Made by a program: the position numbers and the translations under genes. Of a stretch of DNA of 64,000 bases, positions 16,757 to 64,000 are shown piece after piece. The notes under the pieces were generated by a model. The model was not told the DNA's origin, did not search any database, and saw only the letters and a program-made list of their open reading frames with translations. Origin of the DNA: an uncultured delta proteobacterium (lineage in GTDB: Bacteria > Myxococcota > Myxococcia > Myxococcales > Myxococcaceae); the NCBI GenBank assembly GCA_963776345.1, contig CAVZMH010000019.1:128001-192000 (forward strand), written 5' to 3'. How positions within the stretch are numbered: position 1 is the first letter of the stretch; every line of letters starts with the position of its first letter.

Positions 16757-18073
16757 ATGACCCCGTACGAGCTCATCCGGGCCAAGCGCGATGGCGGCGC
16801 GCTGCCGCCGGACGCGCTGCGCGGTTTGCTCGCCGCGTACGCCCGCGGGGAGGTCCCGGACTACCAGATGGCCGCCCTGTGCATGGCGGTCTTCTTCCGG
16901 GGCCTCGACGCGGCCGAGCTGCGGACCTGGACCGAGGCCATGCTCCACTCGGGGAGCACGCTCCGGCGCCGGCCCGGCTCGCCGCCGCGGGTCGACAAGC
17001 ACTCGACCGGTGGGGTGGGGGACAAGGTCTCCCTCTGCCTCGCTCCGCTCGTGGCAGCCTGCGGCCTGGCCGTCCCGATGGTGAGCGGCCGCGGGCTCGG
17101 CCACACCGGCGGCACGCTGGACAAGCTCGCCGCCATCCCCGGGTTTCGCACCGACCTGTCGCTCGCCGAGGCCGACCGCGTCCTGGGTGAGCTGGGGGTG
17201 TGCATGCTCGGGCAGACCGACGAGCTCGCCCCGGCCGACCGGCGGCTGTACGCGCTCCGCGACGTCACCGCGACGGTGGACTCCATCCCGCTCATCGCCG
17301 CCAGCATCCTGAGCAAGAAGCTCGCCGAGGACCTGGACGGGCTGGTGCTCGACGTGAAGGTCGGCTCGGGCGCGTTCATGCGCCGGCAGCAGGAGGCCGA
17401 GCGGCTCGCGCGGACGCTGGTGGACCTGGCCCGGGACCTGGGCTGCCCGGCCGTCGCCTGGCTCACCTCGATGGACGCCCCGCTCGGCCGCGCCGTGGGC
17501 AACGGCAACGAGCTGCTCGAGGCCGTGGACGTGCTCCGCGGCGAGGGCCCCGCGGACGTGCGCGCGCTCACCCTCCGCCTCGGCGCCGAGATGCTGGTGC
17601 TCGGGCGGCAGGCCGGGAGCGTCCCCGAGGCGGAGCGGCGGCTCGCGGCGGCCATCGCCGACGGCTCGGGCCTGGAGCGCTTCCGGGCGCTGGTCCGTGC
17701 GCAGGGCGGAGACCCGGGCCTGCTCGACAGTCCGGCGCGCCTGCTCGGTCCACTGGAGACGACGGAGGTGCGCGCGGAGCGGGCCGGTCACCTCGCGTCC
17801 GTCGACACGCTGGCGGTGGGCCTCGCGGCCGTGGTGCTCGGCGCGGGCCGCACCCGGAGCGACGACTCCATCGACCCCGGCGTCGGACTCACCGTGCTCC
17901 ACCGGCCCGGCGACCGGGTGGAGCGGGGCGAGGCGCTGGTCGCGGTTCACCACCGGTCCGGTCAGGACGTGGGGAAGGTGTGCCGCCGGCTCGCGTCAGC
18001 GGTGCGCATCGGCGACGCGGTCGAGCCCGTTCCGCCGCTGCTCCTCGCCCGGCTGGAGGCCTCGCGGCCATGA
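16757..18073 (+). CDS. deoA: Thymidine/pyrimidine-nucleoside phosphorylase
   Basis: DKHSTGGVGDK, SGRGLGHTGGTLDKL, LYALRDVTAT, SILSKK. Confidence 0.95.
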   Translation: MTPYELIRAKRDGGALPPDALRGLLAAYARGEVPDYQMAALCMAVFFRGLDAAELRTWTEAMLHSGSTLRRRPGSPPRVDKHSTGGVGDKVSLCLAPLVAACGLAVPMVSGRGLGHTGGTLDKLAAIPGFRTDLSLAEADRVLGELGVCMLGQTDELAPADRRLYALRDVTATVDSIPLIAASILSKKLAEDLDGLVLDVKVGSGAFMRRQQEAERLARTLVDLARDLGCPAVAWLTSMDAPLGRAVGNGNELLEAVDVLRGEGPADVRALTLRLGAEMLVLGRQAGSVPEAERRLAAAIADGSGLERFRALVRAQGGDPGLLDSPARLLGPLETTEVRAERAGHLASVDTLAVGLAAVVLGAGRTRSDDSIDPGVGLTVLHRPGDRVERGEALVAVHHRSGQDVGKVCRRLASAVRIGDAVEPVPPLLLARLEASRP

Positions 18074-49617: not shown

Positions 49618-50078
49618 GGAACGGCCGATTCCTCGGCGCGGAGCTCGCTCTCCGGTGCTCGCCGGGGCCGGAGGATGGCGTCTCCGACTGGAGCCCCACC
49701 GAGCGTCTCGATGCGGAAGCGGTGCGGCTCCCCCTTCCACAGGAGGTTGTGCAGCCCGCCGATGAACCGGAACCCAACGGAGACGAGGTCGATGTCCACC
49801 CGCCCGGTCCGCCAGGACACCCGCCGCGTCCCGCGCACGGCATAGGTCGGACCGTCGAGCGACACCTCGCCCTCGGTTTCCATCGCCCCGGACTCGAGGA
49901 GCCGCCGCGCGCTCGCCGCCTGGTGTCGGAGCATCAGCTGGATCGGCCGGTCCTGCTCCTCGCCGTCGCGCCGCCAGGTGCCGTGGAGGGTCTCGGTGAA
50001 GTCCACCGTCCCCTTGGCGGAGAGCCGCCTGGCCCAGTCCGGCAAGAGCATCAGCGCCTCGGCCCGCGATGATGTCAT
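49614..50078 (-). CDS. Hypothetical protein
   Basis: Open frame with GC3 bias (FTETLHG...); start uncertain (50078 or 50051). Confidence 0.5.
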   Translation of the reverse strand: MTSSRAEALMLLPDWARRLSAKGTVDFTETLHGTWRRDGEEQDRPIQLMLRHQAASARRLLESGAMETEGEVSLDGPTYAVRGTRRVSWRTGRVDIDLVSVGFRFIGGLHNLLWKGEPHRFRIETLGGAPVGDAILRPRRAPESELRAEESAVP

Positions 50079-50272
50079 CACGACAACAGCCTCCCCGTGC
50101 CGACAGCAGACCACTCCGGGGGCGTGGGTTGTCAACGGACGCACCAACAGTGAAGGGTCGCGCCATGCAGCCAGGGGCTGCCGCACCGCGGAATGTCAGT
50201 GACTCTCATGTGTTGCGGGCGCGGGGGCCAGGAACCTACAGTCCGCCCCCCGTTCGAGCCCAGGAGCGACTT

Positions 50273-51262
<990 letters not shown>

Positions 51263-51271
51263 AGCGCCGCG

Positions 51272-52153
51272 ATGCTTCCCCGGGAGCTCATCCGGCGCAT
51301 CCGTCGGCTGGAGATCGCCACTCGCCAGGTCGTCTCCGCGCTCCTGGCGGGCCAGTACCACTCCGTCTTCAAGGGCCGGGGCATGGCCTTCAGCGAGGTG
51401 CGGCCCTACCAGGCGGGCGACGACATCCGCTCCATCGACTGGAACGTGACCGCGCGCACCAGCGCCCCGCACGTGAAGGTGTTCACCGAGGAGCGCGAGC
51501 TCACCGTGGTGCTCCTGGTGGACGTCTCGGCCTCCGAGGAGTTCGGCTCGCGGGGGAGGCGCAAGTCGGAGATGGCGGCCGAGGTCGCGGCGCAGATCGC
51601 CTTCTCCGCCATCGCCAACAACGACCGGGTGGGGCTCCTTCTCTTCAGCGACCGGGTGGAGAAGGTCATCCCTCCCCGGAAGGGTCGGAAGCACGTGCTC
51701 CGGCTGGTGAGCGACATCCTCTCCTTCCGGCCGGAGGGCAAGGGCACCGACCTCTCGCTCGCCCTGGCCTGGCTCTCCCGGGTGACCAAGCGGCGGACGG
51801 TGCTCTTCGTGGTCTCGGACTTCCTGCTCGAGGGGTACGAGGCGCCGCTCCGCACGGCGCGGATGAAGCACGACGTCGTCCCGGTGGTGCTGCGCGACCC
51901 GATGGAGGAGGCGTTCCCCGCCCTCGGCCTGGTCGAGGTGGAGGACCCGGAGACGGGCGAGCGGGCGCTGGTGGACAGCGCGTCTCCCGGCGTCCAGCGG
52001 GAGTTCCAGGCGGCGGTGGCCCGCGCCCGGGCCGAGCGCACCCGGGTGTTCCGCAAGCTGGAGCTCGACTCGGTGGAGCTCCGCGCCGGCGAGGACCACG
52101 GCGAGGCGCTGGTGCGCTTCTTCCGTGCGCGGGCCCGGAGGCTCGCCGCGTGA
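51272..52153 (+). CDS. DUF58 (VWA-like) protein
   Basis: GMAFSEVRPYQAGDDIRSIDWNVTAR, DVSAS, SDF. Confidence 0.93.
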   Translation: MLPRELIRRIRRLEIATRQVVSALLAGQYHSVFKGRGMAFSEVRPYQAGDDIRSIDWNVTARTSAPHVKVFTEERELTVVLLVDVSASEEFGSRGRRKSEMAAEVAAQIAFSAIANNDRVGLLLFSDRVEKVIPPRKGRKHVLRLVSDILSFRPEGKGTDLSLALAWLSRVTKRRTVLFVVSDFLLEGYEAPLRTARMKHDVVPVVLRDPMEEAFPALGLVEVEDPETGERALVDSASPGVQREFQAAVARARAERTRVFRKLELDSVELRAGEDHGEALVRFFRARARRLAA

Positions 52154-53175
52154 CCGGGCTCCGGACGCTGCTCTTCCTGACGCTGGCCGCTCCGGTGGGT
52201 GTGCTCGGCCCGGCCGCGAGGGGCGCGCCCGCGGAGGGGGCGGCGGATGCGGGCGCCGAGCGTCGCGTGGAGCCGCTGGCGGTGGACCGGCAGGTCATCC
52301 CCGAGGCGGTGCGGCTCGGCGAGCCGTTCGTCTACCGCCTCACCCTGCACCATCCGCCCGGACAGCGGTGGGAGCTGCGCACCCCGCGGGACCTCGGCGG
52401 CTTCGAGCTGCTGGAGCAGAGCCGGACCCGGCAGGACGGAAAGGGGGAGAGCACCACCACCTACCTCCTCAAGATGTCGCTCTTCGCCCTGGGCAGCCAC
52501 GTGCTCCCCACCCTGACCTTCGACGTGGTGGATGCGCAGGGCGGCGGGGTGGCCCGCATCGACGGCCCGGACATCGAGGGGAAGAGCAGCCTCCCCAAGG
52601 ACGCCGATCAGCTGGGGGCCAAGCTCGAGGACATCAAGCCCAACGAGGACGTGCCGGTCCGCAGCTGGCGGTTGCTCTGGTGGCTCGCCGGCGCCGCGGC
52701 GATCGCCGCGCTCGCCTGGCTCGCCCGCCGCGCCTGGCTCCGCCGGCCGAGGCGCCTCGCCCCGGCCGTGCCCCCGCTCCCGCTCGAGGAGCGCATCCGG
52801 CAGGCCCTCGACGCGCTCGAGGCCGAGGGGCTGCCGGCGCGGGGGCTCCAGCGCGAGTTCCACTTCCGGCTGAACGCGCTGGCCCGGGGCTACCTCGGCG
52901 AGCGCTTCGGGTTCGACGCGCTCGAGTGCACCAGCGGCGAGCTGCTCCGCGAGGTGGAGCGCCGCGACTTGCCCGGCGTGGACCAGGCGGGGCTCCAGCG
53001 CTTCGTGGACCAGTGCGACGTGGCCCGCTACGCGCGCGGGGACGTGCCGGTGCCGGCGTGCGCCGGGGCGCTCGCGTTCGCCCGGTCGCTGGTCGAGGCC
53101 ACCCGTCCCGGACCGCCGCCGACCGAGCCGCCCCCCGGGCCGCCGGAGCCGGGGGCCGAGGTGGCCAGGGCGTGA
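52150..53175 (+). CDS. Bat-operon membrane protein (DUF4381-like)
   Basis: GTGA overlap; signal peptide, Ig-like domain, LEDIKP + TM, YLGERFG..ALECTS.E. Confidence 0.75.
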   Translation: MTGLRTLLFLTLAAPVGVLGPAARGAPAEGAADAGAERRVEPLAVDRQVIPEAVRLGEPFVYRLTLHHPPGQRWELRTPRDLGGFELLEQSRTRQDGKGESTTTYLLKMSLFALGSHVLPTLTFDVVDAQGGGVARIDGPDIEGKSSLPKDADQLGAKLEDIKPNEDVPVRSWRLLWWLAGAAAIAALAWLARRAWLRRPRRLAPAVPPLPLEERIRQALDALEAEGLPARGLQREFHFRLNALARGYLGERFGFDALECTSGELLREVERRDLPGVDQAGLQRFVDQCDVARYARGDVPVPACAGALAFARSLVEATRPGPPPTEPPPGPPEPGAEVARA

Positions 53176-54182
53176 TGGCGTTCACCTGGAAGAGCCCGGA
53201 GGCGTTCTGGCTCCTGCTGCTCGTCCCCCTGGTGGGCGCCTGGTCCGTCTGGACCGCGCGGAACCGGGTGGCGGCGCTCCGGTACCCGGTGGCGCGGGTG
53301 CTCGCCGCGGGCGGGCCCGGCCTCCGCGGCACGGCGCGGAAGGCGCTCCCGCTGCTCCGGATGGCCGCGGTGGCGCTGGCGGTCGTCGCGCTCGCCCGGC
53401 CGCAGACGGTGGGCGCGCGGGTGCGGGACCTCTCGGTGGAGGGGATCGACATCATGATCGCCCTCGACCTCTCCACCTCGATGGAGGCCGCCGACTTCCG
53501 CCCGCAGAACCGGATCTACGTCGCCAAGGAGACGCTGAACGAGGTCATCTCCTCCAGGGTGAACGACCGCATCGGCCTGGTGGTCTTCGCCGGCGCGGCC
53601 TACACCCAGGCCCCGCTCACGCTCGACTACGGGGTCCTCCGCGAGGTGGTGAAGCAGCTGCGCACCCGCGTGCTGGAGGACGGGACCGCCATCGGCGACG
53701 CGCTCGCGGTCTCGCTCAACCGGCTCCGCGACTCGGACGCCAAGAGCAAGGTGGTGGTGCTGATCACCGACGGCGACAACAACGCCGGGCGCATCTCGCC
53801 GCTCGACGCCGCGGCGATGGCCAAGGCGCTGCACATCCCGGTCTTCACCATCCTGGTGGGGAAGGGCGGGAAGGTGCCGTTCCCCGACGGGACGGACCTC
53901 TTCGGCAATCCGAGCTACCGCGAGCTGGACATCGCGGTGAACCCGGGCCTGCTCCAGCAGATCTCGAAGATGACCGGCGCCGAGTACTACCGGGCCACCG
54001 ACCGGGAGTCCCTCCGCGCCGGGCTGAACGGGATCCTCGACCGGCTGGACAAGAGCAAGCTGCTCGAGGGGGGCGCGAGCGCCAACTACCAGGAGGAGTT
54101 CCCGCCGTTCCTGCTCGCGGCGTTCCTCTGCGCCGGGCTGGAGCTGCTCCTTCGCTCCACCGTGCTGAGGGTGTTCCCGTGA
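53175..54182 (+). CDS. batA: BatA VWA protein
   Basis: ALARPQ, MIDAS DLSTSM, DRIGLVVF, GTAIGD, LITDG. Confidence 0.88.
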   Translation: MAFTWKSPEAFWLLLLVPLVGAWSVWTARNRVAALRYPVARVLAAGGPGLRGTARKALPLLRMAAVALAVVALARPQTVGARVRDLSVEGIDIMIALDLSTSMEAADFRPQNRIYVAKETLNEVISSRVNDRIGLVVFAGAAYTQAPLTLDYGVLREVVKQLRTRVLEDGTAIGDALAVSLNRLRDSDAKSKVVVLITDGDNNAGRISPLDAAAMAKALHIPVFTILVGKGGKVPFPDGTDLFGNPSYRELDIAVNPGLLQQISKMTGAEYYRATDRESLRAGLNGILDRLDKSKLLEGGASANYQEEFPPFLLAAFLCAGLELLLRSTVLRVFP

Positions 54183-56092
54183 GCGGGACCGCCTGGCGCT
54201 TCACCGTGCTCGGGTACCCGGTGGGCCTCGGCGCCCCGGAGTGGCTCCTGCTCGGGCTGGTGGCGCTGGCGGTCGGCGCGGTGGCCGCAGCGGCGGCGCT
54301 CCGGCGCCGGGCGGCCGTCCGGCGGCTCCTCGGCGAGCGGCTGGGTGACAGCCTCGCCCCGGGCGTGGAGGTGGCGCGTCCGGTGGTGCGCGCGGTGTCC
54401 ACCGGGCTGTCGCTCCTCCTCTTCGCCCTCGCCCTCGGCCAGCCGCAGTGCGGGAGCCGCGCCGAGCTCACCAAGAAGCGGGGCATCGACGTGGTGGTGG
54501 CCCTGGACGCGAGCCGGTCGATGCGCGCCCGCGACGTGCTCCCCAGCCGGCTGGAGCGGGCCAAGCTCGAGCTCTCCACGCTGCTGGACGAGCTCAAGGG
54601 CGACCGGGTGGCCATCGTGGCCTTCGCCGGCGACGCGTTCGTCCAGTGCCCGCTCACCTCCGACTACGCCGCGGCCAAGCTGTTCCTCCGCGCCATCGAC
54701 CCGGACCAGATGCAGGAGGGCGGGACCAACATCGGCGCGGCGCTGATGACGGCGCAGCGGGTGCTGGAGGGCGCCGACCGCGGGGCGAAGGACCGGGTGG
54801 TCGTGCTGCTCTCGGACGGCGAGGACCTCTCCGGCGAGGTGGGCGAGGCCACCGAGGCGCTGAAGGCGGCCGGGGTCAAGGTGTTCGCCGTGGGCATCGG
54901 CAGCGCCGGCGGCGAGCCCATCCCCCTCCTCGACAAGCAGGGCGAACGCACCGGGTACCTGAAGGACCCGACGACGGGGCAGACGGTCCTCAGCCGGCTG
55001 GACGAGGCCGGCCTGGAGGGCATCGCCCAGGCCACCGGGGGCGAGTACTTCCACCGGACGGGCGCCGTGGCCGTGCCCGAGGTCGCCGCCCGCATCGACC
55101 GGCTGCAGAAGACCGAGCTCGAGAGCCGGATCACCGTCCACTACGACGAGCGGTTCCAGGCGTTCCTGCTCCCCGGCCTCGTCCTCCTGGTGCTCGGGAT
55201 GATCGCCGGCGCACCGAGGCGTCGTCGCTCGACCGCGGTGCTGGGCGCGGGGCTGCTCCTCCTGGCCGCGCCGGCGCGGGCGCTCGGTCCGTTCGAGGCC
55301 AATCCACCCGGCGTGGAGCGCGGGCTGAAGGCGTACGACCAGGGCCGCTTCGAGGACGCGCTCCGCGAGTTCAAGGCCGCCGAGCAGGAGGCGCCCGGGA
55401 ATCCGGCGCTGGAGTACAACCGCGGAAACGCGCTCTACCGGCTCGGGCGCTATGACGAGGCGAGGGAGGCGTACCGGCGGGCGGCCGACGCGGCGGGCCC
55501 CTCTCTCAAGGAGCGAGACCTCTACAACATGGGCAACGCCCTGGCGCAGCTCGGCGACACGCAGGGGGCGATCGGCGCCTACCGGAAGGCGCTGGTGCTC
55601 GAGCCGCGCGACGAGGCGGCCCGGCACAACCTCGAGGTGCTGCTCCGGAAGATTCCGCCTCCGAAGTCGCAATCGGGTGACGGAGGGACGGACGGCGGCC
55701 GGCCGGACGGAGGGCCCCAGGACGGGGGCTCGGACGGGGGCCAGGGCGACGGTGGCCAGTCGGGGGATGGCGGGACGCAGCGCGGCGACGCCGGGACCCG
55801 GGGCGGCGCCGACGGTGGGCCGGCCGACGGTGGCTCGCGGGCCGAGCAGCAGCGGTCGCAGGAGGCCGAGCAGGACGGGGGCATGGACGGGGGGAGCCGC
55901 CCGGACGAGCCCGACGCCGGGCCTCCCGAGCCGGACCTCCTTCGGGACGCGGGAGTGGGGCGGGCCGGAGGGTTCGACCGGAGCGAGGCCGAGCGGCTCC
56001 TCGACGCCATGAGACAGAACGAAAGGAATCTCCAGCTCTGGCGGTTCCAGCAGAAGAAGAGGCAGAGAAAGCCCGATGAGAAGGACTGGTAG
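54179..56092 (+). CDS. batB: BatB (VWA)-BatC (TPR) fusion
   Basis: DASRSM, PLTSD, LSDGED; then TPRs (YNRGN, YNMGN, ARHNLE), DGG-repeat linker, EKDW end. Confidence 0.85.
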   Translation: MSGTAWRFTVLGYPVGLGAPEWLLLGLVALAVGAVAAAAALRRRAAVRRLLGERLGDSLAPGVEVARPVVRAVSTGLSLLLFALALGQPQCGSRAELTKKRGIDVVVALDASRSMRARDVLPSRLERAKLELSTLLDELKGDRVAIVAFAGDAFVQCPLTSDYAAAKLFLRAIDPDQMQEGGTNIGAALMTAQRVLEGADRGAKDRVVVLLSDGEDLSGEVGEATEALKAAGVKVFAVGIGSAGGEPIPLLDKQGERTGYLKDPTTGQTVLSRLDEAGLEGIAQATGGEYFHRTGAVAVPEVAARIDRLQKTELESRITVHYDERFQAFLLPGLVLLVLGMIAGAPRRRRSTAVLGAGLLLLAAPARALGPFEANPPGVERGLKAYDQGRFEDALREFKAAEQEAPGNPALEYNRGNALYRLGRYDEAREAYRRAADAAGPSLKERDLYNMGNALAQLGDTQGAIGAYRKALVLEPRDEAARHNLEVLLRKIPPPKSQSGDGGTDGGRPDGGPQDGGSDGGQGDGGQSGDGGTQRGDAGTRGGADGGPADGGSRAEQQRSQEAEQDGGMDGGSRPDEPDAGPPEPDLLRDAGVGRAGGFDRSEAERLLDAMRQNERNLQLWRFQQKKRQRKPDEKDW

Positions 56093-57908
56093 CCCCCTCG
56101 CCGCCGCAGCCGTCCTGGCGCTCGCCGCGTCCGCGCTCGCCGCCGAGGCGCCGGTGGTCACCCAAGAGGTGGACCGCACCGAGGTGGGGACGGACGACAT
56201 CTTCGTCCTCACGGTGCGGGCCGTGGACGCGCCCTCGGGCTCGTCGCTGCAGCCGCCGGACGTGCCGACGGTGGAGACCATCGGCACCAGCCGCGGCGTC
56301 GAGAGCAGCATCCGCTTCGGGGGCGGGGGCCCGCGGGTGCAGCAGACCTCCACCCTCAAGGTGAGGATGCGCGCGCTCAAGCCCGGGAAGCTGGTCCTGC
56401 CGCCGGCGGAGCTCCACACAGGGAACGGCGTCTTCAAGTCCCAGACCGTGACGCTGATGGTGAAGAGCGGGCATGTGCCGGGTCCCCAGGGGACCGCGCG
56501 CCGACCCGACCCGTTCGGGATGAGCCCCTTCGGGGACGACGACGAGAACCCGTTCGACGTCTTCCGGCGGCGGCAGCAGGCCGCGGGCGAGCGCGACCTC
56601 TTCCTCCGGGGCGAGCTGGACAAGAAGGAGGTCTACCAGGGCGAGCAGGCCACGCTGTCGCTGTGGATCTACGCCCGGGTGGACCTGAGCCGGGTCGACG
56701 CGGTCACCATGCCCAAGCTGGATGGGTTCTGGACCGAGGACGTGGAGACGCCCAAGGAGCTCACCGGCGAGACGCGGACGGTCGACGGCGTGCCCTACCG
56801 GGCCTACCTCCTCCGTCGGCTCGCGCTCTTCCCGGTGAAGTCCGGCCCGCGGGAGATCGGCTCCGTCGAGGCCGACATCACCACCGGCTTCCTCTTCGCC
56901 GGCCGGCGCGAGCACCGCGCCTCGCAGCCGTTGACCTTGAAGGTGCGGCCGCTGCCCCCGGGCGCGCCCGCGGGATTCCAGCCCAGCGCGGTGGGAGCCT
57001 GGGCGCTCACCGCCGAGCTGACCTCGGGGCGCACCGAGCTCGGGGCGCCGGTGACCCTCCGCATCTCGGTGGAGGGGCGCGGCAACGTGAAGGATCTCGT
57101 CTTGCCCCGGCCGGTGGTGCTGCCCGCCCTGAAGCTGTACGAGCCCACCACCAGCGACAAGACGTCCACCGTGCGGGGACGCATCCAGGGACGCCGGACC
57201 CAGGAGTTCCTCGTCCTTCCCCAGCAGACCGGCACCTTCGAGATTCCCGCGCTGGAGCTCGCCTACTTCGACCCGGAGACGCAGCGCTACGAGCGCGGCC
57301 GGACCGCGCCGCTGACCCTGGTCGTCGTGCCCGGGGCCGGGACGGCCACCGTCGCCGCGCTGCCCGGGCGCACCGAGGAGCCAGTGGCGCACAACGTGCT
57401 CAACGCCACCGCCCTCCGTCCCCTTCGAGTCTCGGCGGCGCTGGACCGGCCGCCGCCGCCCTGGCGCCGGCCGTGGTTCCTGGCCCTGCTCGGGCTGCCT
57501 CCCCTGGTCTTCGCCGGTGCGCTGGCGGGTCAGGCCGTCCAGCGGCACCGGGCGCGGTCCGACCCGCGAGGTGAGCAGCGGCGGCGGGAGCAGCGCGCCC
57601 GCGGACGGCTCGTGGCGCTGAGGACCTCGGGGCAAGGCATGGACGACGTGGCCTTCTCGGCCGAGGTGGACGCGGCGGTGGCCGAGCTGCTCTCGGTCCG
57701 GCTGGGCGCGCCGGTCACCGGACTCACCCGCGAGGCGCTGCGGGCGCGGCTGGCCGAGGCCGGGGCCCCGCCCGAGCTCCAGGCGCGGGTGGTGCGGGTA
57801 CAAGACTCCTGCGACGAGGTGCGCTTCGCGCCCGGCGCCGCCCGGATGGATCGCGCCGCGGTGCTCGACGACGCCGAGGCCCTCGCCGGCGGCTGGGAGG
57901 GCGCCTGA
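56076..57908 (+). CDS. batD: BatD family protein
   Basis: Signal peptide, repeated Ig-like domains, VYQGEQ, AVG, YFDP, C-terminal TM. Confidence 0.85.
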   Translation: MRRTGSPLAAAAVLALAASALAAEAPVVTQEVDRTEVGTDDIFVLTVRAVDAPSGSSLQPPDVPTVETIGTSRGVESSIRFGGGGPRVQQTSTLKVRMRALKPGKLVLPPAELHTGNGVFKSQTVTLMVKSGHVPGPQGTARRPDPFGMSPFGDDDENPFDVFRRRQQAAGERDLFLRGELDKKEVYQGEQATLSLWIYARVDLSRVDAVTMPKLDGFWTEDVETPKELTGETRTVDGVPYRAYLLRRLALFPVKSGPREIGSVEADITTGFLFAGRREHRASQPLTLKVRPLPPGAPAGFQPSAVGAWALTAELTSGRTELGAPVTLRISVEGRGNVKDLVLPRPVVLPALKLYEPTTSDKTSTVRGRIQGRRTQEFLVLPQQTGTFEIPALELAYFDPETQRYERGRTAPLTLVVVPGAGTATVAALPGRTEEPVAHNVLNATALRPLRVSAALDRPPPPWRRPWFLALLGLPPLVFAGALAGQAVQRHRARSDPRGEQRRREQRARGRLVALRTSGQGMDDVAFSAEVDAAVAELLSVRLGAPVTGLTREALRARLAEAGAPPELQARVVRVQDSCDEVRFAPGAARMDRAAVLDDAEALAGGWEGA

Positions 57909-58600
57909 TGGCCGGCGACGCCGAGCTGCTCTTCCAGCAGGGGCTCCAGGCCTACGGCCGGGGCGACGTGGCGGCGGCCGAGGACGCCTTCCGCACGCTC
58001 GTCGAGCAGGGCCACGACGGCCCCGACGTCCTCTACAACCTCGGCACCACCGCGCTCGCCCAGGGGAAGATCGGCGAGGCGGTGTACGCGCTGGAGCAGG
58101 CGCGGCGCGCGGGCGGTGGCACGGATGTCGAGGCCAACCTCACCATCGCCCGGGGGCGACAGCTGGATCAGCTGGTGGGCGCCCAGGGCGAGGAGCCCTT
58201 CGTGGAGCGGGTGGCCGCGGCCACCTCTCCGGGGCTGTCGGGCGGGCTGTTCGCCGGGCTCTGGGCGCTCGGGTTCCTGCTGCTGGCGGCGAGGAGGATG
58301 CTGGGCCGCTGGCGGGGGTGGCTGCTCGGAGGGGCGATGTCGGCCCTGGCGCTGAGCGTCCCCGCCGGCGCGGTGCTGGGCGCCCACCTCTGGAGCCAGG
58401 AGGCGGTGCACGAGGGGGTGGTGCTCGCCCGGACCCTCCCGGTCCACGAGGTGCCGGAGGCCCGGAGCAAGGTCTCGTTCGAGCTCCACCCGGGGGTGAA
58501 GCTCCGGATGCTCGACCGCTCCGGGGACTTCGTCCGGGTGCGGCTCCCCAACGGTCTCGAGGGCTGGACGGACCCCGCGGGGGTGTCGCCACTGCGTTGA
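57908..58600 (+). CDS. batE: BatE-like TPR + SH3 protein
   Basis: LYNLG TPR, two TM helices, FELHPGVK...NGLEGW. Confidence 0.82.
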   Translation: MAGDAELLFQQGLQAYGRGDVAAAEDAFRTLVEQGHDGPDVLYNLGTTALAQGKIGEAVYALEQARRAGGGTDVEANLTIARGRQLDQLVGAQGEEPFVERVAAATSPGLSGGLFAGLWALGFLLLAARRMLGRWRGWLLGGAMSALALSVPAGAVLGAHLWSQEAVHEGVVLARTLPVHEVPEARSKVSFELHPGVKLRMLDRSGDFVRVRLPNGLEGWTDPAGVSPLR

Positions 58601-58650
58601 GGTCCTTGCCTCCGGCGCGAGCGTGCTACATCTCGGGGCTCGACCCTCTC

Positions 58651-59055
58651 GTGGAATCCCGCTCTCCGTTCCGGATCCTGGTGGTGGAGGACGAGCCCGT
58701 CATCCGGGAGCTCGTGCGGAGCATGCTCGACGACGGGCCGGTGGAGGTGGAGACCGCCGGAAACGGCGCCGACGGGCTCCGGCGGGCGCGCGAGTCCCGG
58801 TTCGACCTGGTGCTGCTCGACGTGGTGCTCCCCGGAATGGACGGGCTGACCGTCTGCCGCATGCTGAAGGCCGACCCGGCCACCGCGTCCACTCCGCTCT
58901 ACATGCTCACCGCCAAGACGCGCCGGAGCGACCTCGAGGCCGCGCTGGCGGCGGGGGCCAACGGGTACATCCACAAGCCCTTCCGGGGCTCCGAGCTGAT
59001 GGAGCTGGTGGAGCGGCTGCGGACCGGCGAGGGCGGGACCGTAGGGGATAGCTGA
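58651..59055 (+). CDS. Single-domain response regulator
   Basis: ILVVEDE, LLDVVLPGMDG, MLTA, KPF. Confidence 0.9.
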   Translation: MESRSPFRILVVEDEPVIRELVRSMLDDGPVEVETAGNGADGLRRARESRFDLVLLDVVLPGMDGLTVCRMLKADPATASTPLYMLTAKTRRSDLEAALAAGANGYIHKPFRGSELMELVERLRTGEGGTVGDS

Positions 59056-59135
59056 CTGCGGCCGCCCTGACCTCGCCGACCATAGGGCCCGACGAGCCCC
59101 TGACCCGGATCTCGACTGCGGCCGCCCTGACCTAG
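59050..59135. repeat. REP-like repeat cluster, same family as 11114-11155
   Basis: GACTGCGGCCGCCCTGACCT at 59054-59073 and 59114-59133, partial CCCTGACC between them. Confidence 0.8.
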
Positions 59136-59458
59136 GGGAGCCGCGGGTGGAGGAAGCGGGCGAGGGCGAAGAGGTCGTCCCAGTCCAGCCCGTCGAACTC
59201 CAGCGCCACGCCGGTGGCGTCCTGGCGGACCACCGAGCAGCGGAGCTGCACCAGCCGGTCGCCCGGGAGCGGAAGGGCCACGGTGAGCGACTGGCCCAGG
59301 GGCGCGCGGAGCCCGAGCACGCGCAGACCGGCGAGCGAGATGTCCTCGGCCACGGCCTGGCGGAGCATCCCCGGGCCGCGGATCTCCACCGGCAGGTGGG
59401 CGGCCACGCGCGGGTGCTGGCGTTCGCGGAGTGAACCGAGGTCGGGGGAGTCCGGCAT
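59132..59458 (-). CDS. Stand-alone PilZ domain protein
   Basis: RERQHPR and DISLAG motifs. Confidence 0.85.
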   Translation of the reverse strand: MPDSPDLGSLRERQHPRVAAHLPVEIRGPGMLRQAVAEDISLAGLRVLGLRAPLGQSLTVALPLPGDRLVQLRCSVVRQDATGVALEFDGLDWDDLFALARFLHPRLP

Positions 59459-59688
59459 GGCGGGGCTCCAGCGTGAAGCGACGAGTCGGGCGAGGAGTGT
59501 GAGGGAGGTCGGCCGCCCGGGCAACTTTCCCTCGACCCCACACCCCGGGGGCAGCGCAGTCCGTCTCGCGGCCCGGGCGCTCCGTCCCGCCCGACGGAGT
59601 GTTTCCGCGGGCGTTTCAGGGGGCTGGAGGGCGGGCACGGTCCGTGAACTGGCCTCCGCCGGTCACCGGGGTGAGGGGGGAGGACACG

Positions 59689-60081
59689 ATGGAGACGCCA
59701 GCGGTCACGGGAAGCGGCGCGACGCAGCCGCCGCAGAAGAAGGGGTTCGGGGACATCCTCGGCTCGGCCCTCGGCGGGTTCGCGAGAGGAGCGGGGGGCG
59801 CGCTGTCGGTGCTCTCGCCGCCGGCGGCGCTGGTCGGGGGTCTCGTCTCGGGGGTGGCGTCGGCCGTCTCGGCGCTCACCGGGGGCGGCGGCGCCCCGGC
59901 GCCGATCCGCTCGGACGCAGACCTGCTCGCGCTCCTGTCGCAGCCCGGGGAGCTGAGCAGCCAGGACTACCTGCGCATCCAGCAGTACATGCAGGCCGAG
60001 GCGCAGCAGTTCACCGCGGTGTCCAACGTCCTCAAGGTGCGCTCGGACTCGGCGAAGGCGGCCATCAACAACATCCGCTAG
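59689..60081 (+). CDS. T3SS needle (SctF)-like protein with Gly/Ala-rich N-terminus
   Basis: GGAGG RBS; C-terminal QQYMQ...SNVLKVRSDSAKAAINNIR; first gene before sctI-like and sctJ. Confidence 0.6.
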   Translation: METPAVTGSGATQPPQKKGFGDILGSALGGFARGAGGALSVLSPPAALVGGLVSGVASAVSALTGGGGAPAPIRSDADLLALLSQPGELSSQDYLRIQQYMQAEAQQFTAVSNVLKVRSDSAKAAINNIR

Positions 60082-60083
60082 CC

Positions 60084-60464
60084 ATGGCCATCGAGCGCGT
60101 CGCGACAGCGAGCATCGTCCCTGCCCCGGACCGGGCGCGCGGCGCCTCACCCGCGCCCTTCGAGCTGCAGCGCCGGGAACGGCCGCCCCCGGCGCCGGCC
60201 CCGCTGGAGGTCGAGCCCCACCGGGTGGCGCCGACCAGGAAGCCCCGGGTCGATCCCGGTGCATGGCTGGGCCGGGTGGCGGCGGCCCAGGCGCGGATGG
60301 ACCGCATCCTCGCCCTCGCGGCGTCGGGGCGGACGTTCTCCCCGGCGGAGCTGCTCTTGCTCCAGGCCGGGGTGGCGGAGGCGAGCCAGACGGTGGACCT
60401 CGCCGGCAAGGTGCTGGACCGGGTCAGCGGCGGGGTGAAGACGCTGCTCCAGACGCAGGTGTGA
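60084..60464 (+). CDS. T3SS inner-rod (SctI/HrpB2)-like protein
   Basis: SPAELLLLQ...DLAGKVLDRVSGGVKTLLQTQ; directly upstream of sctJ. Confidence 0.7.
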   Translation: MAIERVATASIVPAPDRARGASPAPFELQRRERPPPAPAPLEVEPHRVAPTRKPRVDPGAWLGRVAAAQARMDRILALAASGRTFSPAELLLLQAGVAEASQTVDLAGKVLDRVSGGVKTLLQTQV

Positions 60465-61660
60465 CGGTGCGCCCTGCTCTCCTCGCGGTGGTGGCGCTGG
60501 CGGTCTCCTGCGCGTCGCGCGTGCAGCACGGGCTGGACGAGCGGCAGGCGAACGAGATCCAGACCGTGCTGATGGAGCGCGGCTTCCGGGCAGCCAAGGT
60601 GGTGGAGGACGGCCGGCCCCCCACCTGGGCGGTGGAGGTGGAGTCCGCCGACGCCGCCGACGCGGTGCGAGTGCTGGCCGAGCAGGGGCTTCCGCGGGCA
60701 CGTCCGGCGGGCGTCCGGGAGCTGCTCAAGCCCGGGCTGGTGCCGGACCCGGTGGAGCAGCATGCGCTCCTGCTCGAGGCGCAATCCGGAGAGCTGGCGC
60801 GCACGCTCGAGGCGGTGGACGGAGTGGTGTCGGCCCGGGTGCACCTGGTCCGTCCGCAGGCCACCCGCTCCGGGGCGCCCAGCGCGCCGACGAAGGCCGC
60901 GGTGTTCCTCCGGGCGCAGCCGGCGGCGGCCGCCCATCTCCAGGCGATGCGCGACGAGCTCCGGGCGCTGGTGGCCGGCTCGGTCGAGGGCCTCGAGTCC
61001 GCCGCGGTGACGCTGGTCGTCTCCGAGGTGGTGTCCACGGTTCCGCCCCGGGCGCCTGCGCCGGCGCGGTCCGGCTGGGGGCCGGCCCTGCTCGGGGCCC
61101 TGGTGCTCGTGCTCGGGATCGGCGCCGTCGGGGGTTACCTGCTGCTCCACCGTCGTGCTCGCCCGGGGAGCGCGCCCTCGCCGGCGGGGGCGACGCCTCG
61201 CGCTCCGCCCGGTGGTGCAGGCGCCGCTGGCGCGGAGGGAGACCGGATGAGCCACGACCGCGAGGATGGCGGGCGACGACTCCCCGGCGGAATGCGATCG
61301 GCGTCGCCGACCGTCCCCGCGCAGGGCCTCGAGCTCGAGGCCCTGGTCCACCTGGTGCACGCGCTGGGCGGGGCACGCGCCGGGGCGCTGCTCTCGGGGC
61401 TGGCGGACCCGCTCCGCCAGCGCGCGCTGGCGCTGAAGCGCTCGGTCGAGCGAAGAAGCCAGGCCGAGCGCCACGCCGTGCTGGCCGTGGCCTTCGCCCC
61501 CCGGGAGCCGGGGCCGAGCGCGCCGGGAATTCCGGGCGCCCTGGGCGACCGGGTCCGGGCCCTGTTCGCCAGGAGGGGCGTCCCGGCCGGCGCGGCCGCG
61601 TCCGAGCGCCTGGAGCGCTGGGCGCGGCGCCTCGCCCGCGAGCTGGCCGACCGCCCGTGA
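60461..61660 (+). CDS. sctJ: SctJ (YscJ/HrcJ) ring lipoprotein, in frame with a downstream SctK-like helical domain (internal ATG at 61247)
   Basis: Lipobox AVSC, GLDERQANEI, GLP, ELARTL..VDGV.SARVHL, LVAGSVEGL, TM. Confidence 0.82.
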   Translation: MTVRPALLAVVALAVSCASRVQHGLDERQANEIQTVLMERGFRAAKVVEDGRPPTWAVEVESADAADAVRVLAEQGLPRARPAGVRELLKPGLVPDPVEQHALLLEAQSGELARTLEAVDGVVSARVHLVRPQATRSGAPSAPTKAAVFLRAQPAAAAHLQAMRDELRALVAGSVEGLESAAVTLVVSEVVSTVPPRAPAPARSGWGPALLGALVLVLGIGAVGGYLLLHRRARPGSAPSPAGATPRAPPGGAGAAGAEGDRMSHDREDGGRRLPGGMRSASPTVPAQGLELEALVHLVHALGGARAGALLSGLADPLRQRALALKRSVERRSQAERHAVLAVAFAPREPGPSAPGIPGALGDRVRALFARRGVPAGAAASERLERWARRLARELADRP

Positions 61661-61737
61661 GCCAGCACCCGATCGGTCAAGCGCGAGCGGCGAGCAGGGC
61701 CGTCCTCCTGTCAGCCATGCCGCGGCGGCGGCCAGAC

Positions 61738-63363
61738 TCAGGGCACCACCCAGCCCGTGTCCGCCACGAGCGCCGGACCCTCCGCCTTGGCGAAGTGGAC
61801 GATGTGGCCACCCTTCGAGGCGAAGCGCTGGCCCGGAGCGAGCCCGAGCCGCGGGTAGTACCCGTTCACCAGGCGGTGGCTGAGCATCATCTCCACGCGT
61901 TCCACCAGGTAGTCGCGCACGAAGCTGTCCAGCATGTGTCCGAGCGTCTCGGAGAGGATGACGCAGGAGAGGTAGGTGTCCGTCTGCACGCGCTCGGCCA
62001 CCACCGGGAGGTGGCGCACCCGGAACCAGCCCAGTGGAAAGTCCATCCGCACCTTCCGGACGTCGGGCAGGTCGAACGGGTAGGTCAGGCGCGCCACGTC
62101 TCTCCACGCCCCCGGCAGCAGGGCGCGCTCCAGGCCGCCCATCAGCCCCGAGACGTAGACCGCGCCGGCCCGAGGTGGCGTGGCCGGCAGGAGCGCGAGG
62201 TCCGGAGCACGCAGCCACAGCACGACCGTGTCCTCCGGTCCGGTGTCCCGGAGCGCCTCCTCGAGCTGCTGCGCCCCCGCCTCCGGGGCGAGTGCCCGGG
62301 AGACCTGCGCGAGCCCGGCCGCGCGCCTCGTCGCGCCCAGGGCCCTCGCCGCGTCCTCGCCGATGTCGCCCGTTCGGTAGAGCTGGATCAGCCTGGGTCG
62401 AGCGGGGCGCGCGCCCGGGGCGGAGAGCCTCCCGGCGATCAGGTCCGCCTCCAGCAGGACGCCCCTGGAGAAGTAGACGGGGTAGAAGTCCCGCTCGGCG
62501 ACGACCGGAAGGTCGGTGTTGGGGAGGAGGCAGGGGAGCTCGGAGCTCTCGCAGAACCGGTGGACGGGGGCCCAGGTCCTCCCCCCGATGCCGGAGATGA
62601 CCGCGAAGACCGGCTCGGCCGCGAGCCGCTCGTCGAGCTGCCGCTCCCAGGTTTCCGGCGGCCCCTGGAGCTCCCAGACGTGCAGCTGCCACTTTCGGAG
62701 CACGCGGTACATCACCCCCCGGCTCGACTGCATCGGCCGGCTCTCGCCCCGGTAGCCGGCGTTCTTGTCGGCGAAGAACTGCTGCAGGACGTCCAGCATG
62801 CCCTTGCGCGCGGTGGGGTCGGCGTCCGGGGCGACGATGGTGGCGAAGTGGAGCGTGTCCCGGCTGACGCCCGGCTCCGGATCGGCGGTGAGCCGCCCGA
62901 GGTAGGCGACGAGCGAGGTCATGGTGGCGTCGTCCAGCCGGTAGCGGGGCATGAGGTACGCCAGCTTCTTGCCCCGCGGGTCCAGCCCCTCGCGGATGGC
63001 GCGGGCCAAGGTCGCCTCGGTGTACGCGTCGCGACGGGGCACGTAGCCCTGCACGTGCGGCATGGCCTCGTCCTCGACGATGCGCGCCCCGGGCCGGAAG
63101 AGGTACCGCCCGATGATGGGTGGGATGACGCTCTGCCCCTCCCAGCTCCCGAGCCCGCTCCGGCGGTGGCAGGTGGCGCAGGCGGCCGCCTGGCCCTTCA
63201 CCCCCACCCCGCCCTCGCGCTCGCCCCGGAGCGGCTGGCCCGAGGGGAGCACCCCCTCGCGGTACAGGCGCTCGCCCGCGGACGGACCGGCGGCGCGCGC
63301 CGGCGCCGGAGCCGAGGCGAGCGACAGCGCCACAAGGGACAGGGCCCGGACGGCCAGGGACAT
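61738..63363 (-). CDS. Cytochrome c fused to a periplasmic-binding-protein-like domain
   Basis: Signal peptide, CATCH, MPRY axial Met, PVFAVISG...PCLLP; ATG at 63363. Confidence 0.8.
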   Translation of the reverse strand: MSLAVRALSLVALSLASAPAPARAAGPSAGERLYREGVLPSGQPLRGEREGGVGVKGQAAACATCHRRSGLGSWEGQSVIPPIIGRYLFRPGARIVEDEAMPHVQGYVPRRDAYTEATLARAIREGLDPRGKKLAYLMPRYRLDDATMTSLVAYLGRLTADPEPGVSRDTLHFATIVAPDADPTARKGMLDVLQQFFADKNAGYRGESRPMQSSRGVMYRVLRKWQLHVWELQGPPETWERQLDERLAAEPVFAVISGIGGRTWAPVHRFCESSELPCLLPNTDLPVVAERDFYPVYFSRGVLLEADLIAGRLSAPGARPARPRLIQLYRTGDIGEDAARALGATRRAAGLAQVSRALAPEAGAQQLEEALRDTGPEDTVVLWLRAPDLALLPATPPRAGAVYVSGLMGGLERALLPGAWRDVARLTYPFDLPDVRKVRMDFPLGWFRVRHLPVVAERVQTDTYLSCVILSETLGHMLDSFVRDYLVERVEMMLSHRLVNGYYPRLGLAPGQRFASKGGHIVHFAKAEGPALVADTGWVVP

Positions 63364-63968
63364 CAGCGGGTGGCGACCAGCTCGCGGAACTCCCTGATCA
63401 GGTCCTCGGACGAGGCGAACCCGTCGATCCGCACCCACGGCTGACCGGGCGCGGCGCGCAGGAAGGTGACCGGCGTGTGGTCCATCTTGTCGCCGCGGTA
63501 CGCCTTGAACGCCCGCTGCGTGGCCACGCTCGCCTCCACCGTGCCGGTGTAGAAGCGCCACTGGGGTCCGGCGTGGAACTGCCTGGCGTAGGCGGCGAGC
63601 CGGGGCGGGGTGTCCTGCTCGGGGTCGATGGAGATGGACACCATGTGCACCTTGCCCCGCTCGTTCCCCAGCTTCGCCTGGAGCTGGGCGAAGGTCTGGC
63701 TCATCACCGGGCAGATGCTGGCGCAGGTGGTGAAGATGAAGTTCAGGACCACCGGCCGCCCGTCGTCGAGCTCCCGGGCGAGCGAGACCGACTTCCCGTC
63801 CTCACGCACCAGCTCCACCTGGGGCAGGGCGACCTCGGTCGTGGACCGGGTCGCGCGCTTCATGGCCACGTGGTGACCGCCGTGGCAGTCCTCGTCCGCC
63901 GCCCGCGCCCCGCGAACCGGCAGGAGGGCGAGGACGACCGCCAGCGTGCCCGGGACCACAGCTCTCAT
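63363..63968 (-). CDS. SCO/SenC copper chaperone
   Basis: FIFTTCASICP (CxxxC), SISIDPEQDTP, W.FYTG, DH. Confidence 0.9.
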   Translation of the reverse strand: MRAVVPGTLAVVLALLPVRGARAADEDCHGGHHVAMKRATRSTTEVALPQVELVREDGKSVSLARELDDGRPVVLNFIFTTCASICPVMSQTFAQLQAKLGNERGKVHMVSISIDPEQDTPPRLAAYARQFHAGPQWRFYTGTVEASVATQRAFKAYRGDKMDHTPVTFLRAAPGQPWVRIDGFASSEDLIREFRELVATR

Positions 63969-64000
63969 GACCACCTCTCGAGGGAACGCCACGACCCCGG

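Follow-up and report, generated by a model that had tools for sequence, protein, structure and literature searches.

A candidate SctF-like needle or filament subunit at the head of a short myxobacterial type III secretion operon

Do myxobacterial type III secretion systems (T3SSs) lack a needle? The published picture, which the initial annotation had rendered correctly, holds that they do: Abby & Rocha 2012, in the available portions of the paper, describe these systems as lacking SctF, place its loss in the first-diverging lineage and suggest a periplasmic structure (PMC3459982), and the available text of PMC10849154, PMC10433427, PMC12075869, PMC12428579 and PMC11509652 likewise calls them needle-less. 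In the same partial texts, Kil pilus tips are proposed to stand in for the missing needle (PMC12075869), and the exit route of T3SS* substrates is treated as unsettled (PMC10433427). Searches of the open literature, with papers dating from 2012 to 2025, turned up no earlier report of a needle homologue in these systems; automatic Pfam tags already label a minority of the relatives of the gene considered here as PF09392. This gene, termed gene X, opens a short myxobacterial T3SS operon, and it had been read as a diverged filament subunit of the SctF/EspA class. The new data address whether it might be the needle subunit that has been missed.

Gene X and the short T3SS locus

The window, that is, the whole 64,000-nucleotide stretch of DNA that was analysed, carries gene X on the forward strand at 59689-60081. 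Its translation is a 130-aa protein (P0001), preceded on the same strand by a Shine-Dalgarno-like GGAGG (59679..59683) that lies 5 nt upstream of the ATG, and the ribosome-binding site, the Gly/Ala-rich segment and the C-terminus are as originally claimed. GC content by codon position in this frame is of the coding type (0.71/0.61/0.91), and comparison with five close relatives reveals 33-41 differences at third codon positions and 5-9 at second positions. X is a real gene whose ORF is under purifying selection.

Its reported location immediately upstream of sctI-like and sctJ genes was borne out. Specifically, a gene for a 126-aa sctI-like inner rod protein (60084..60464, +) begins about 2-3 nt past the X stop and is followed by the gene for the inner-ring lipoprotein SctJ (60467..61252, +; PF01514, E 1.4e-19), the sole sctJ of the genome, and by a 137-aa ORF (61247..61660, +) that is assigned to the sctK position by location only and has no NCBIfam match. 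The model matches of the sctI-like ORF are weak (PF17001, E 0.13; NF038054, E 0.08); in profile comparison, its family, represented by 58 myxobacterial sctI C-ends, reaches 88% against nine annotated SctI, and the neighbour scores 2.6% against SctF, the opposite behaviour to X. Further T3SS genes, namely sctQ, a fliO-like ORF and sctRSTUV, lie on the same contig about 17 kb further downstream, beyond the window, and sctL-sctN with an SctO-position ORF are found on another contig (C1). The source genome, which is 98% complete, holds a single copy each of sctJ, sctV and a T3SS-type ATPase gene, and its sole T3SS is of the 'short' type; no other X-family member and no FliK/SctP were found in it. 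At the short locus, searches found no SctD, SctP, needle chaperone or linked secretin, and two secretins are encoded elsewhere in the genome.

This locus is the 'short' myxobacterial T3SS of Abby & Rocha and corresponds to M. xanthus T3SS(2) (MXAN_5643-5654), which, according to the available part of PMC10196010, is not involved in killing and is down-regulated during predation. The suggested link to prey killing is inapplicable to the X locus, because the only T3SS of the genome is of this short type. It is restored, for lysis rather than killing, through a paralogue in the long locus, which is probably T3SS* (mxan_2434-2464), a system that PMC12075869 and PMC10433427 describe, in their available portions, as required for prey lysis rather than killing.

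The operon is split between the sctK-position gene and sctQ by roughly 17 kb of opposite-strand genes, which run from about 61700 to 64000 in the window and on to G000:C19:206600 and include cytochrome c-like, SCO-like and apparent multicopper-oxidase genes, the last two recognised by eye; in the close relatives L003-L007, sctQ is only 1.8-2.9 kb from X. On the other side of X lie a divergent PilZ-domain gene (59132..59458, -; PF07238, E 1.9e-11) and, upstream of it, a response-regulator-like gene (58623-59054, +), both of which are kept beside X in many relatives and hint at c-di-GMP control. Between these two genes sits a perfect 20-nt direct repeat (59054-59073 and 59114-59133, 60 nt apart), and further upstream (50069-58600) an ordinary Bat-type operon encodes MoxR AAA+, DUF58, VWA, BatD and TPR-SH3 proteins. 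Expression was viewed in one raw, M. xanthus-like RNA run, in which the X orthologue is covered at both-strand background depth, the same as its neighbours. The short operon stays at background and X stands no higher, and this depth counts against an X needle, because an abundant filament subunit should show an excess. In the same run, the PilZ orthologue has a stranded signal and the T3SS operon has none.

Relationship to SctF and the N-terminal extension

In the AF2 model of X (pLDDT 65.8, pTM 0.30), residues 76-130 (59914..60078, +) are laid out as a helix-loop-long-helix, with predicted helices at 76-83 and 91-129 and pLDDT values of 77-89 across 91-130. These are also the residues that match SctF. 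Comparison of 150 X homologues with eight annotated SctF proteins gave an hhalign probability of 94.5% (P 8e-8) over 57 columns with a common C-terminus, and a broader C-terminal alignment of the family gave 96.7%, at an identity of 11-12% over the aligned columns. The hhalign score of 45.6 compares with 8.4 for the reversed alignment and with null maxima of 15.0 in 60 column shuffles and 24.1 in 60 seven-column block shuffles. In the PDB, profile A10 retrieved chain 7y6c_F at E 8.5e-6 (next match, 0.42), a chain that itself matches annotated SctF at 9e-13; the entry 7Y6C is named in the available part of a paper on the EscE-EsaG-EsaH structure, which comprises the Edwardsiella needle protein EsaG and its chaperones (PMC9426511). 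A10 consists of 26 C-termini found with the family profiles A1/A2 only, after 8 loci picked by PF09392 had been dropped from 32 candidates and the query and L116 had been added. It found EsaG but not PrgI, MxiH or YscF, and no needle protein came up when the PDB was searched with the narrower profiles A1, A2, A3 and A9. Against SctI, whose role is filled by the next gene, hhalign gave 0.2% for X; against HrpA it gave 20% (an alignment of two sequences), and against EspA 0.8% and 3.3% (again two sequences, which makes this a weak test). For the last ~50 aa, the profiles and the synteny thus support the SctF side of the SctF/EspA proposal, and the profiles lend no support to its EspA side. Fold searches returned generic helices and nothing specific.

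Taken as a single protein, P0001 has no Pfam match and no needle match in NCBIfam, and profile searches of the source genome with PF09392 and NF053530 did not find X. It is because the single protein matches no needle model that X has been missed so far. Across the 150 members, the top three Pfam families, all sub-threshold, are HrpF (36), T3SS_needle_F (31) and HrpA_pilin (11), and the commonest NCBIfam match is HrpA (NF053530; 50 members, best 4.7e-5). In the reverse direction, PF09392 matches 58 of 151 Myxococcales genomes at E<=0.3, with 2 of 14 control genomes also matching; two of the 151 exceed the cut-off, because of a longer paralogue class, and among 30 PF09392 loci examined no X-position gene lies above the curated cut-off. 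The X profile in turn matches 29 of the 30 best PF09392 loci (E<=1.1e-6 against this small set), comprising 17 long-locus paralogues, 1 short-type, 2 small and 9 longer paralogues, and the remaining locus is SctI. As a lead only, in the named ESM Atlas clusters nearest to residues 72-130, PF09392 is found on 19-27% of the members. SctF needle proteins are recognised by a PxxP turn. This turn is not conserved in the X family (columns 86-92), and X, with its 130 aa, exceeds the canonical SctFs in the alignment by 45-60 residues and lies outside the small needle size of about 70-90 aa. As judged from the profiles, the C-terminal domain of X is very probably homologous to SctF; X would be an N-terminally extended SctF variant, though not a member of PF09392 by its cut-off.

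The N-terminal extension (residues 20-63; 59746..59877, +) is moderately hydrophobic and is modelled as two low-confidence helices (20-34 and 52-63; pLDDT 47-69) that flank a Pro-Gly turn. Its KD19 maximum is 1.73 (family median 1.53; 58 of 150 members at 1.6 or above), compared with at most 0.42 for three SctF and two HrpA proteins and 1.79 for a Desulfovibrio SctB; true transmembrane helices here have at least 2.17, and no family member reaches 2. The glycine-zipper membrane segment proposed for X survives only in part. An in-register zipper with G at 21/25/29 occurs in 3 of 150 members and is not a family trait (GxxxGxxxG anywhere in residues 16-75 occurs in 32), and what is kept across the family is a moderately hydrophobic small-residue hairpin. 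The N-terminal profile reaches 0.25-0.5% against SctB/SctE and has no match to SctF, and a weak profile match to Hbl L1 (E 0.0018; HblD in 3/150) falls on a Gly/Ala-rich, composition-biased stretch. A pore function of X is quite doubtful; a membrane role is left open, though unsupported, because the hydrophobic small-residue hairpin is conserved. At the start of the extension, F20 has an equivalent in 148 of 150 homologues (median position 25), always with L/M/V/I/F at +4. According to the available text of PMC8983047, the gate-recognition motif (GRM), 36FLTLL40 in FlgD, is conserved across SctF, SctI and SctP, and F20-x-x-x-L24 (59746..59760, +), to judge by its conservation among homologues, would fit this motif of early substrates.

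Distribution of the family and the T3SS* paralogue

Homologues of X are numerous, with 128 matches by phmmer and 2,141 50%-clusters in a profile search at E<=0.001. Common to all of them are a C-terminal helix of very high conservation, the motif RQT..FG.VL in the N-terminal part, the Pro-Gly hairpin and a variable Gly/Ser linker, and Q98 and N128 are invariant in 150 homologues. Confirmed genome loci number 187, and 77 of the 80 best ones have the order X-sctI-sctJ, so that the anticipated synteny across relatives holds; of the other three, one is broken off where its contig ends, and L052 and L058 are not linked to these genes. A family member is present in 260 of 301 genomes of the phylum and FlhA/SctV in 267; by hand comparison of the lists, 258 genomes have both, 2 have X alone, 9 have FHIPEP alone (probably flagellar) and 32 have neither, in a sample in which kin are not independent and one unpublished genome (G180) is included. 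Within the family of the source organism, X and SctV are missing from the same six genomes.

Some members are arranged differently. Those at L052:3340-3942 and L058:7064-7453 have no sctI/sctJ nearby, and in the former the conserved C-terminal helix is fused to an unrelated N-terminus. The same C-terminal module, preceded by N-termini that vary, is also carried by longer paralogues at L141-L143, L153, L156-L158, L160, L161 and L136:9874-10764; those of G146 lie about 2 kb from sctV, and that of G057 lies beside a TPR gene, away from T3SS genes. In G051, a 1.8 Mb genome of the phylum, two tandem family genes and a TPR gene (L138:9732-11566) sit apart from other T3SS genes, and one of the two ends in a canonical needle-like terminus.

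In G108 and G134, a second family copy heads a long cluster of T3SS* layout; both copies also occur in M. xanthus AM003, whose long locus likewise starts with the X paralogue. The gene order there is X paralogue, TPR protein, ~131-aa ORF, FliA-like sigma factor, sctI, sctJ, FliG-like, L, N, O, FliK-like, Q, FliO, R, S, T, U and U-like. SctF needle models are the sole Pfam/NCBIfam matches of the long paralogue (E 0.002-0.02), at 15-18.5 bits versus cut-offs of 29.4/41.7 (PF09392/TIGR02105), and the FliK/SctP-like ruler matches PF02120 at E 2.3e-7. The TPR gene directly 3' of the paralogue in long loci recurs in the distant genomes G001 and G051, and the short locus has none. Its class, SycD/LcrH or SctG-like, is ambiguous: by HMM, the protein scores 4e-14 with the SycD/LcrH translocator-chaperone model versus 1.6e-3 with CdsG, and pairwise profiles built from single sequences give 62% against a Desulfovibrio SctG-position TPR versus 26% against the SycD of that organism. 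Close to sctV and SycD-like genes, the long locus further carries small genes of SctF size, which encode 72-74 aa and come in two or three near-identical copies (L134:7820-8919 in G134; L133:15252-15476 and 17667-17891 in G108), a class that in profile comparison reaches 96.7% against X and 52% against SctF. With this second SctF-like class, the long locus may therefore encode a needle plus an extension, in either order.

The FliA-like sigma factor, assigned by eye, and a 131-155-aa ORF lie between the TPR gene and sctI (L132:18740-19860; L137:8249-9485), and with its FliA-, FliG- and FliK-like genes and FliO the long locus has more flagellar heritage than is usually drawn. Counting genes from 2434 places sctQ at 2445, which agrees with the published tag in the available part of PMC10196010, and the deletion 2438-2451 would by the same count span sctI to the U-like gene. 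The long-locus paralogue is likely MXAN_2434, a correspondence that comes from this count rather than from the DK1622 tags themselves. As MXAN_2434 would lie outside the published deletion mxan_2438-2451, that deletion would not test the paralogue.

A missed needle subunit, its rivals and its known counterparts

What is shown for X is its place in the operon, its joint occurrence with the export gate and its homology to SctF by profile; this suggests that X is a missed needle subunit, exported early and polymerising into a needle or filament, a reading to which we assign a probability of about 0.65. Because X heads the operon and its C-terminal half matches SctF, the 'needle-less' myxobacterial T3SSs likely do build a needle-like filament. 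In the proposed mechanism, F20xxxL24 would dock X on SctU, and SctN would power its export through SctRSTUV; X, exported early, would then nucleate on the SctI rod and polymerise via its C-terminal hairpin into a hollow filament. SctF needles are packed through their C-terminal hairpin. X might pack in the same way, with its ~70 extra N-terminal residues displayed outside. As no secretin, SctP or needle chaperone was found at the short locus, its filament could be a short conduit within the periplasm, or it could rely on a secretin that belongs to a different system. The long-locus paralogue, with its TPR chaperone-like neighbour and FliK/SctP-like ruler, might form a length-controlled needle for prey lysis. 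Counted against an X needle was a cryo-ET study in which 95 tomograms of M. xanthus showed no 'hat-like' structures and whose available portion does not address needles (PMC9380563).

Alternatively, X might be an SctF homologue that builds no long filament, of which a few copies would sit on the SctI rod as a cap or extension and form a stub or plug in the periplasm, so that substrates are released into the periplasm. The short locus without SctD, SctP, needle chaperone and secretin, the bulky N-terminal extension, the background-level RNA of the single run and the periplasmic structure suggested in the available text of Abby & Rocha (PMC3459982) would all suit such a stub, but the very strong conservation along the whole C-terminal helix fits a self-packing surface, and a ruler gene lies close to the long-locus paralogue; overall, we regard it as unlikely. 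Rather improbable, too, is a needle-translocator hybrid, in which the SctF-like domain polymerises and the N-terminal hairpin enters either the outer membrane of the producing cell, as a secretin substitute, or a target membrane. The hydrophobicity of the extension, close to that of one SctB and above that of the needle proteins compared, points in this direction, as do the weak Hbl L1 match and the preference of the long-locus TPR neighbour for the SycD/LcrH model. However, the KD19 of every member stays below that of true transmembrane helices, the zipper is confined to three members, the N-terminal profile gives at most 0.5% against SctB/SctE, the Hbl match lies on a composition-biased stretch, and the TPR protein is closer to the SctG-position TPR than to SycD when single sequences are compared.

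That X is a late filament of the EspA/Bsp22/HrpA type or a secreted substrate, with the 72-74-aa class as the true needle, if any, is very unlikely, although the variable length of the Gly/Ser linker, the many paralogues with variable N-termini (some apart from T3SS genes), the prevalence of HrpA NF053530 among NCBIfam matches and the small tandem SctF-sized genes of the long locus speak for it. X occupies the sctF slot in a genome without any other family member, its profile probabilities are 94-97% for SctF as against 0.8-3.3% for EspA and 20% for HrpA (two sequences each), and the small class itself reaches only 52% against SctF. A chance likeness between amphipathic terminal helices, with X as a cytoplasmic accessory protein, would agree with single-sequence and fold searches that gave nothing specific, but is scarcely credible in view of the shuffle and reversal nulls, the PDB match, the reciprocal PF09392 scan and the operon slot of X.

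A broader version of the needle reading is more tentative. Both myxobacterial T3SSs might have their own distinct, N-terminally extended SctF-family needle, the predatory T3SS* might be a secretin-less, bacteria-aimed injectisome with a needle (MXAN_2434 by count), a chaperone and a ruler, and the earliest-branching non-flagellar T3SS might have kept SctF; the odds that all of this holds jointly seem to us somewhat below even. In its boldest form, the N-terminal hairpin would allow the needle to lodge in membranes or to pierce them with neither secretin nor translocon. An SctF-like X would revise the flagellum-to-injectisome scenario and affect models built on the absence of SctF, such as its loss in the first-diverging lineage and Kil pilus tips as needle substitute. 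It would also give a structural hypothesis to the short T3SS, a system that is widespread in Myxococcales and has no assigned function, and, with a candidate needle gene named, the question becomes testable by one in-frame deletion in M. xanthus.

Among known systems, the EspA/SseB filament proteins resemble X in their T3SS linkage and helical termini but have no profile match to it (0.8-3.3%, from a thin alignment). The HrpA pilin of Hrp1 systems (NF053530, PF09589) has a gene order, Pantoea hrpA-sctI-sctJ-K-L, identical to that of X, is weakly matched by 50 of 150 X members and likewise combines a variable N-terminus with a conserved C-terminus; hhalign gives only 20% (two sequences), however, and HrpA N-termini are not hydrophobic. 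With the myxobacterial short NF-T3SS, T3SS(2) of MXAN_5643-5654, the X locus shares sctI, sctJ, sctQ and sctRSTUV and the lack of a locus sctD and of a secretin, whereas the published system is said to lack SctF and here the first gene is SctF-like, in an operon that, unlike the published one, is split by the ~17 kb insert. T3SS* (MXAN_2434-2464) is absent from the source genome; an X paralogue is the first gene of its long loci in G108, G134 and M. xanthus AM003, and it has what is missing from the short locus, namely the TPR neighbour, a FliK-like ruler, SctD and the additional small genes of SctF size. Compared with SctF itself (PF09392/TIGR02105; EsaG/SsaG, YscF, AscF, MxiH and PrgI-type), the X family is longer (130-190 versus 71-91 aa), adds the hydrophobic N-terminal hairpin and Gly/Ser linker, has no conserved PxxP, stays below the curated cut-offs and has no linked secretin and, at the short locus, no chaperone or ruler. 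At the same time, the C-terminal helix-loop-helix of X aligns with SctF up to the same C-terminus, X occupies the same slot before sctI-sctJ(-K-L), as in mxiH-mxiI-mxiJ and sctF-sctG-sctI-sctJ, and the TPR gene after its long-locus paralogue is placed like yscG after yscF.
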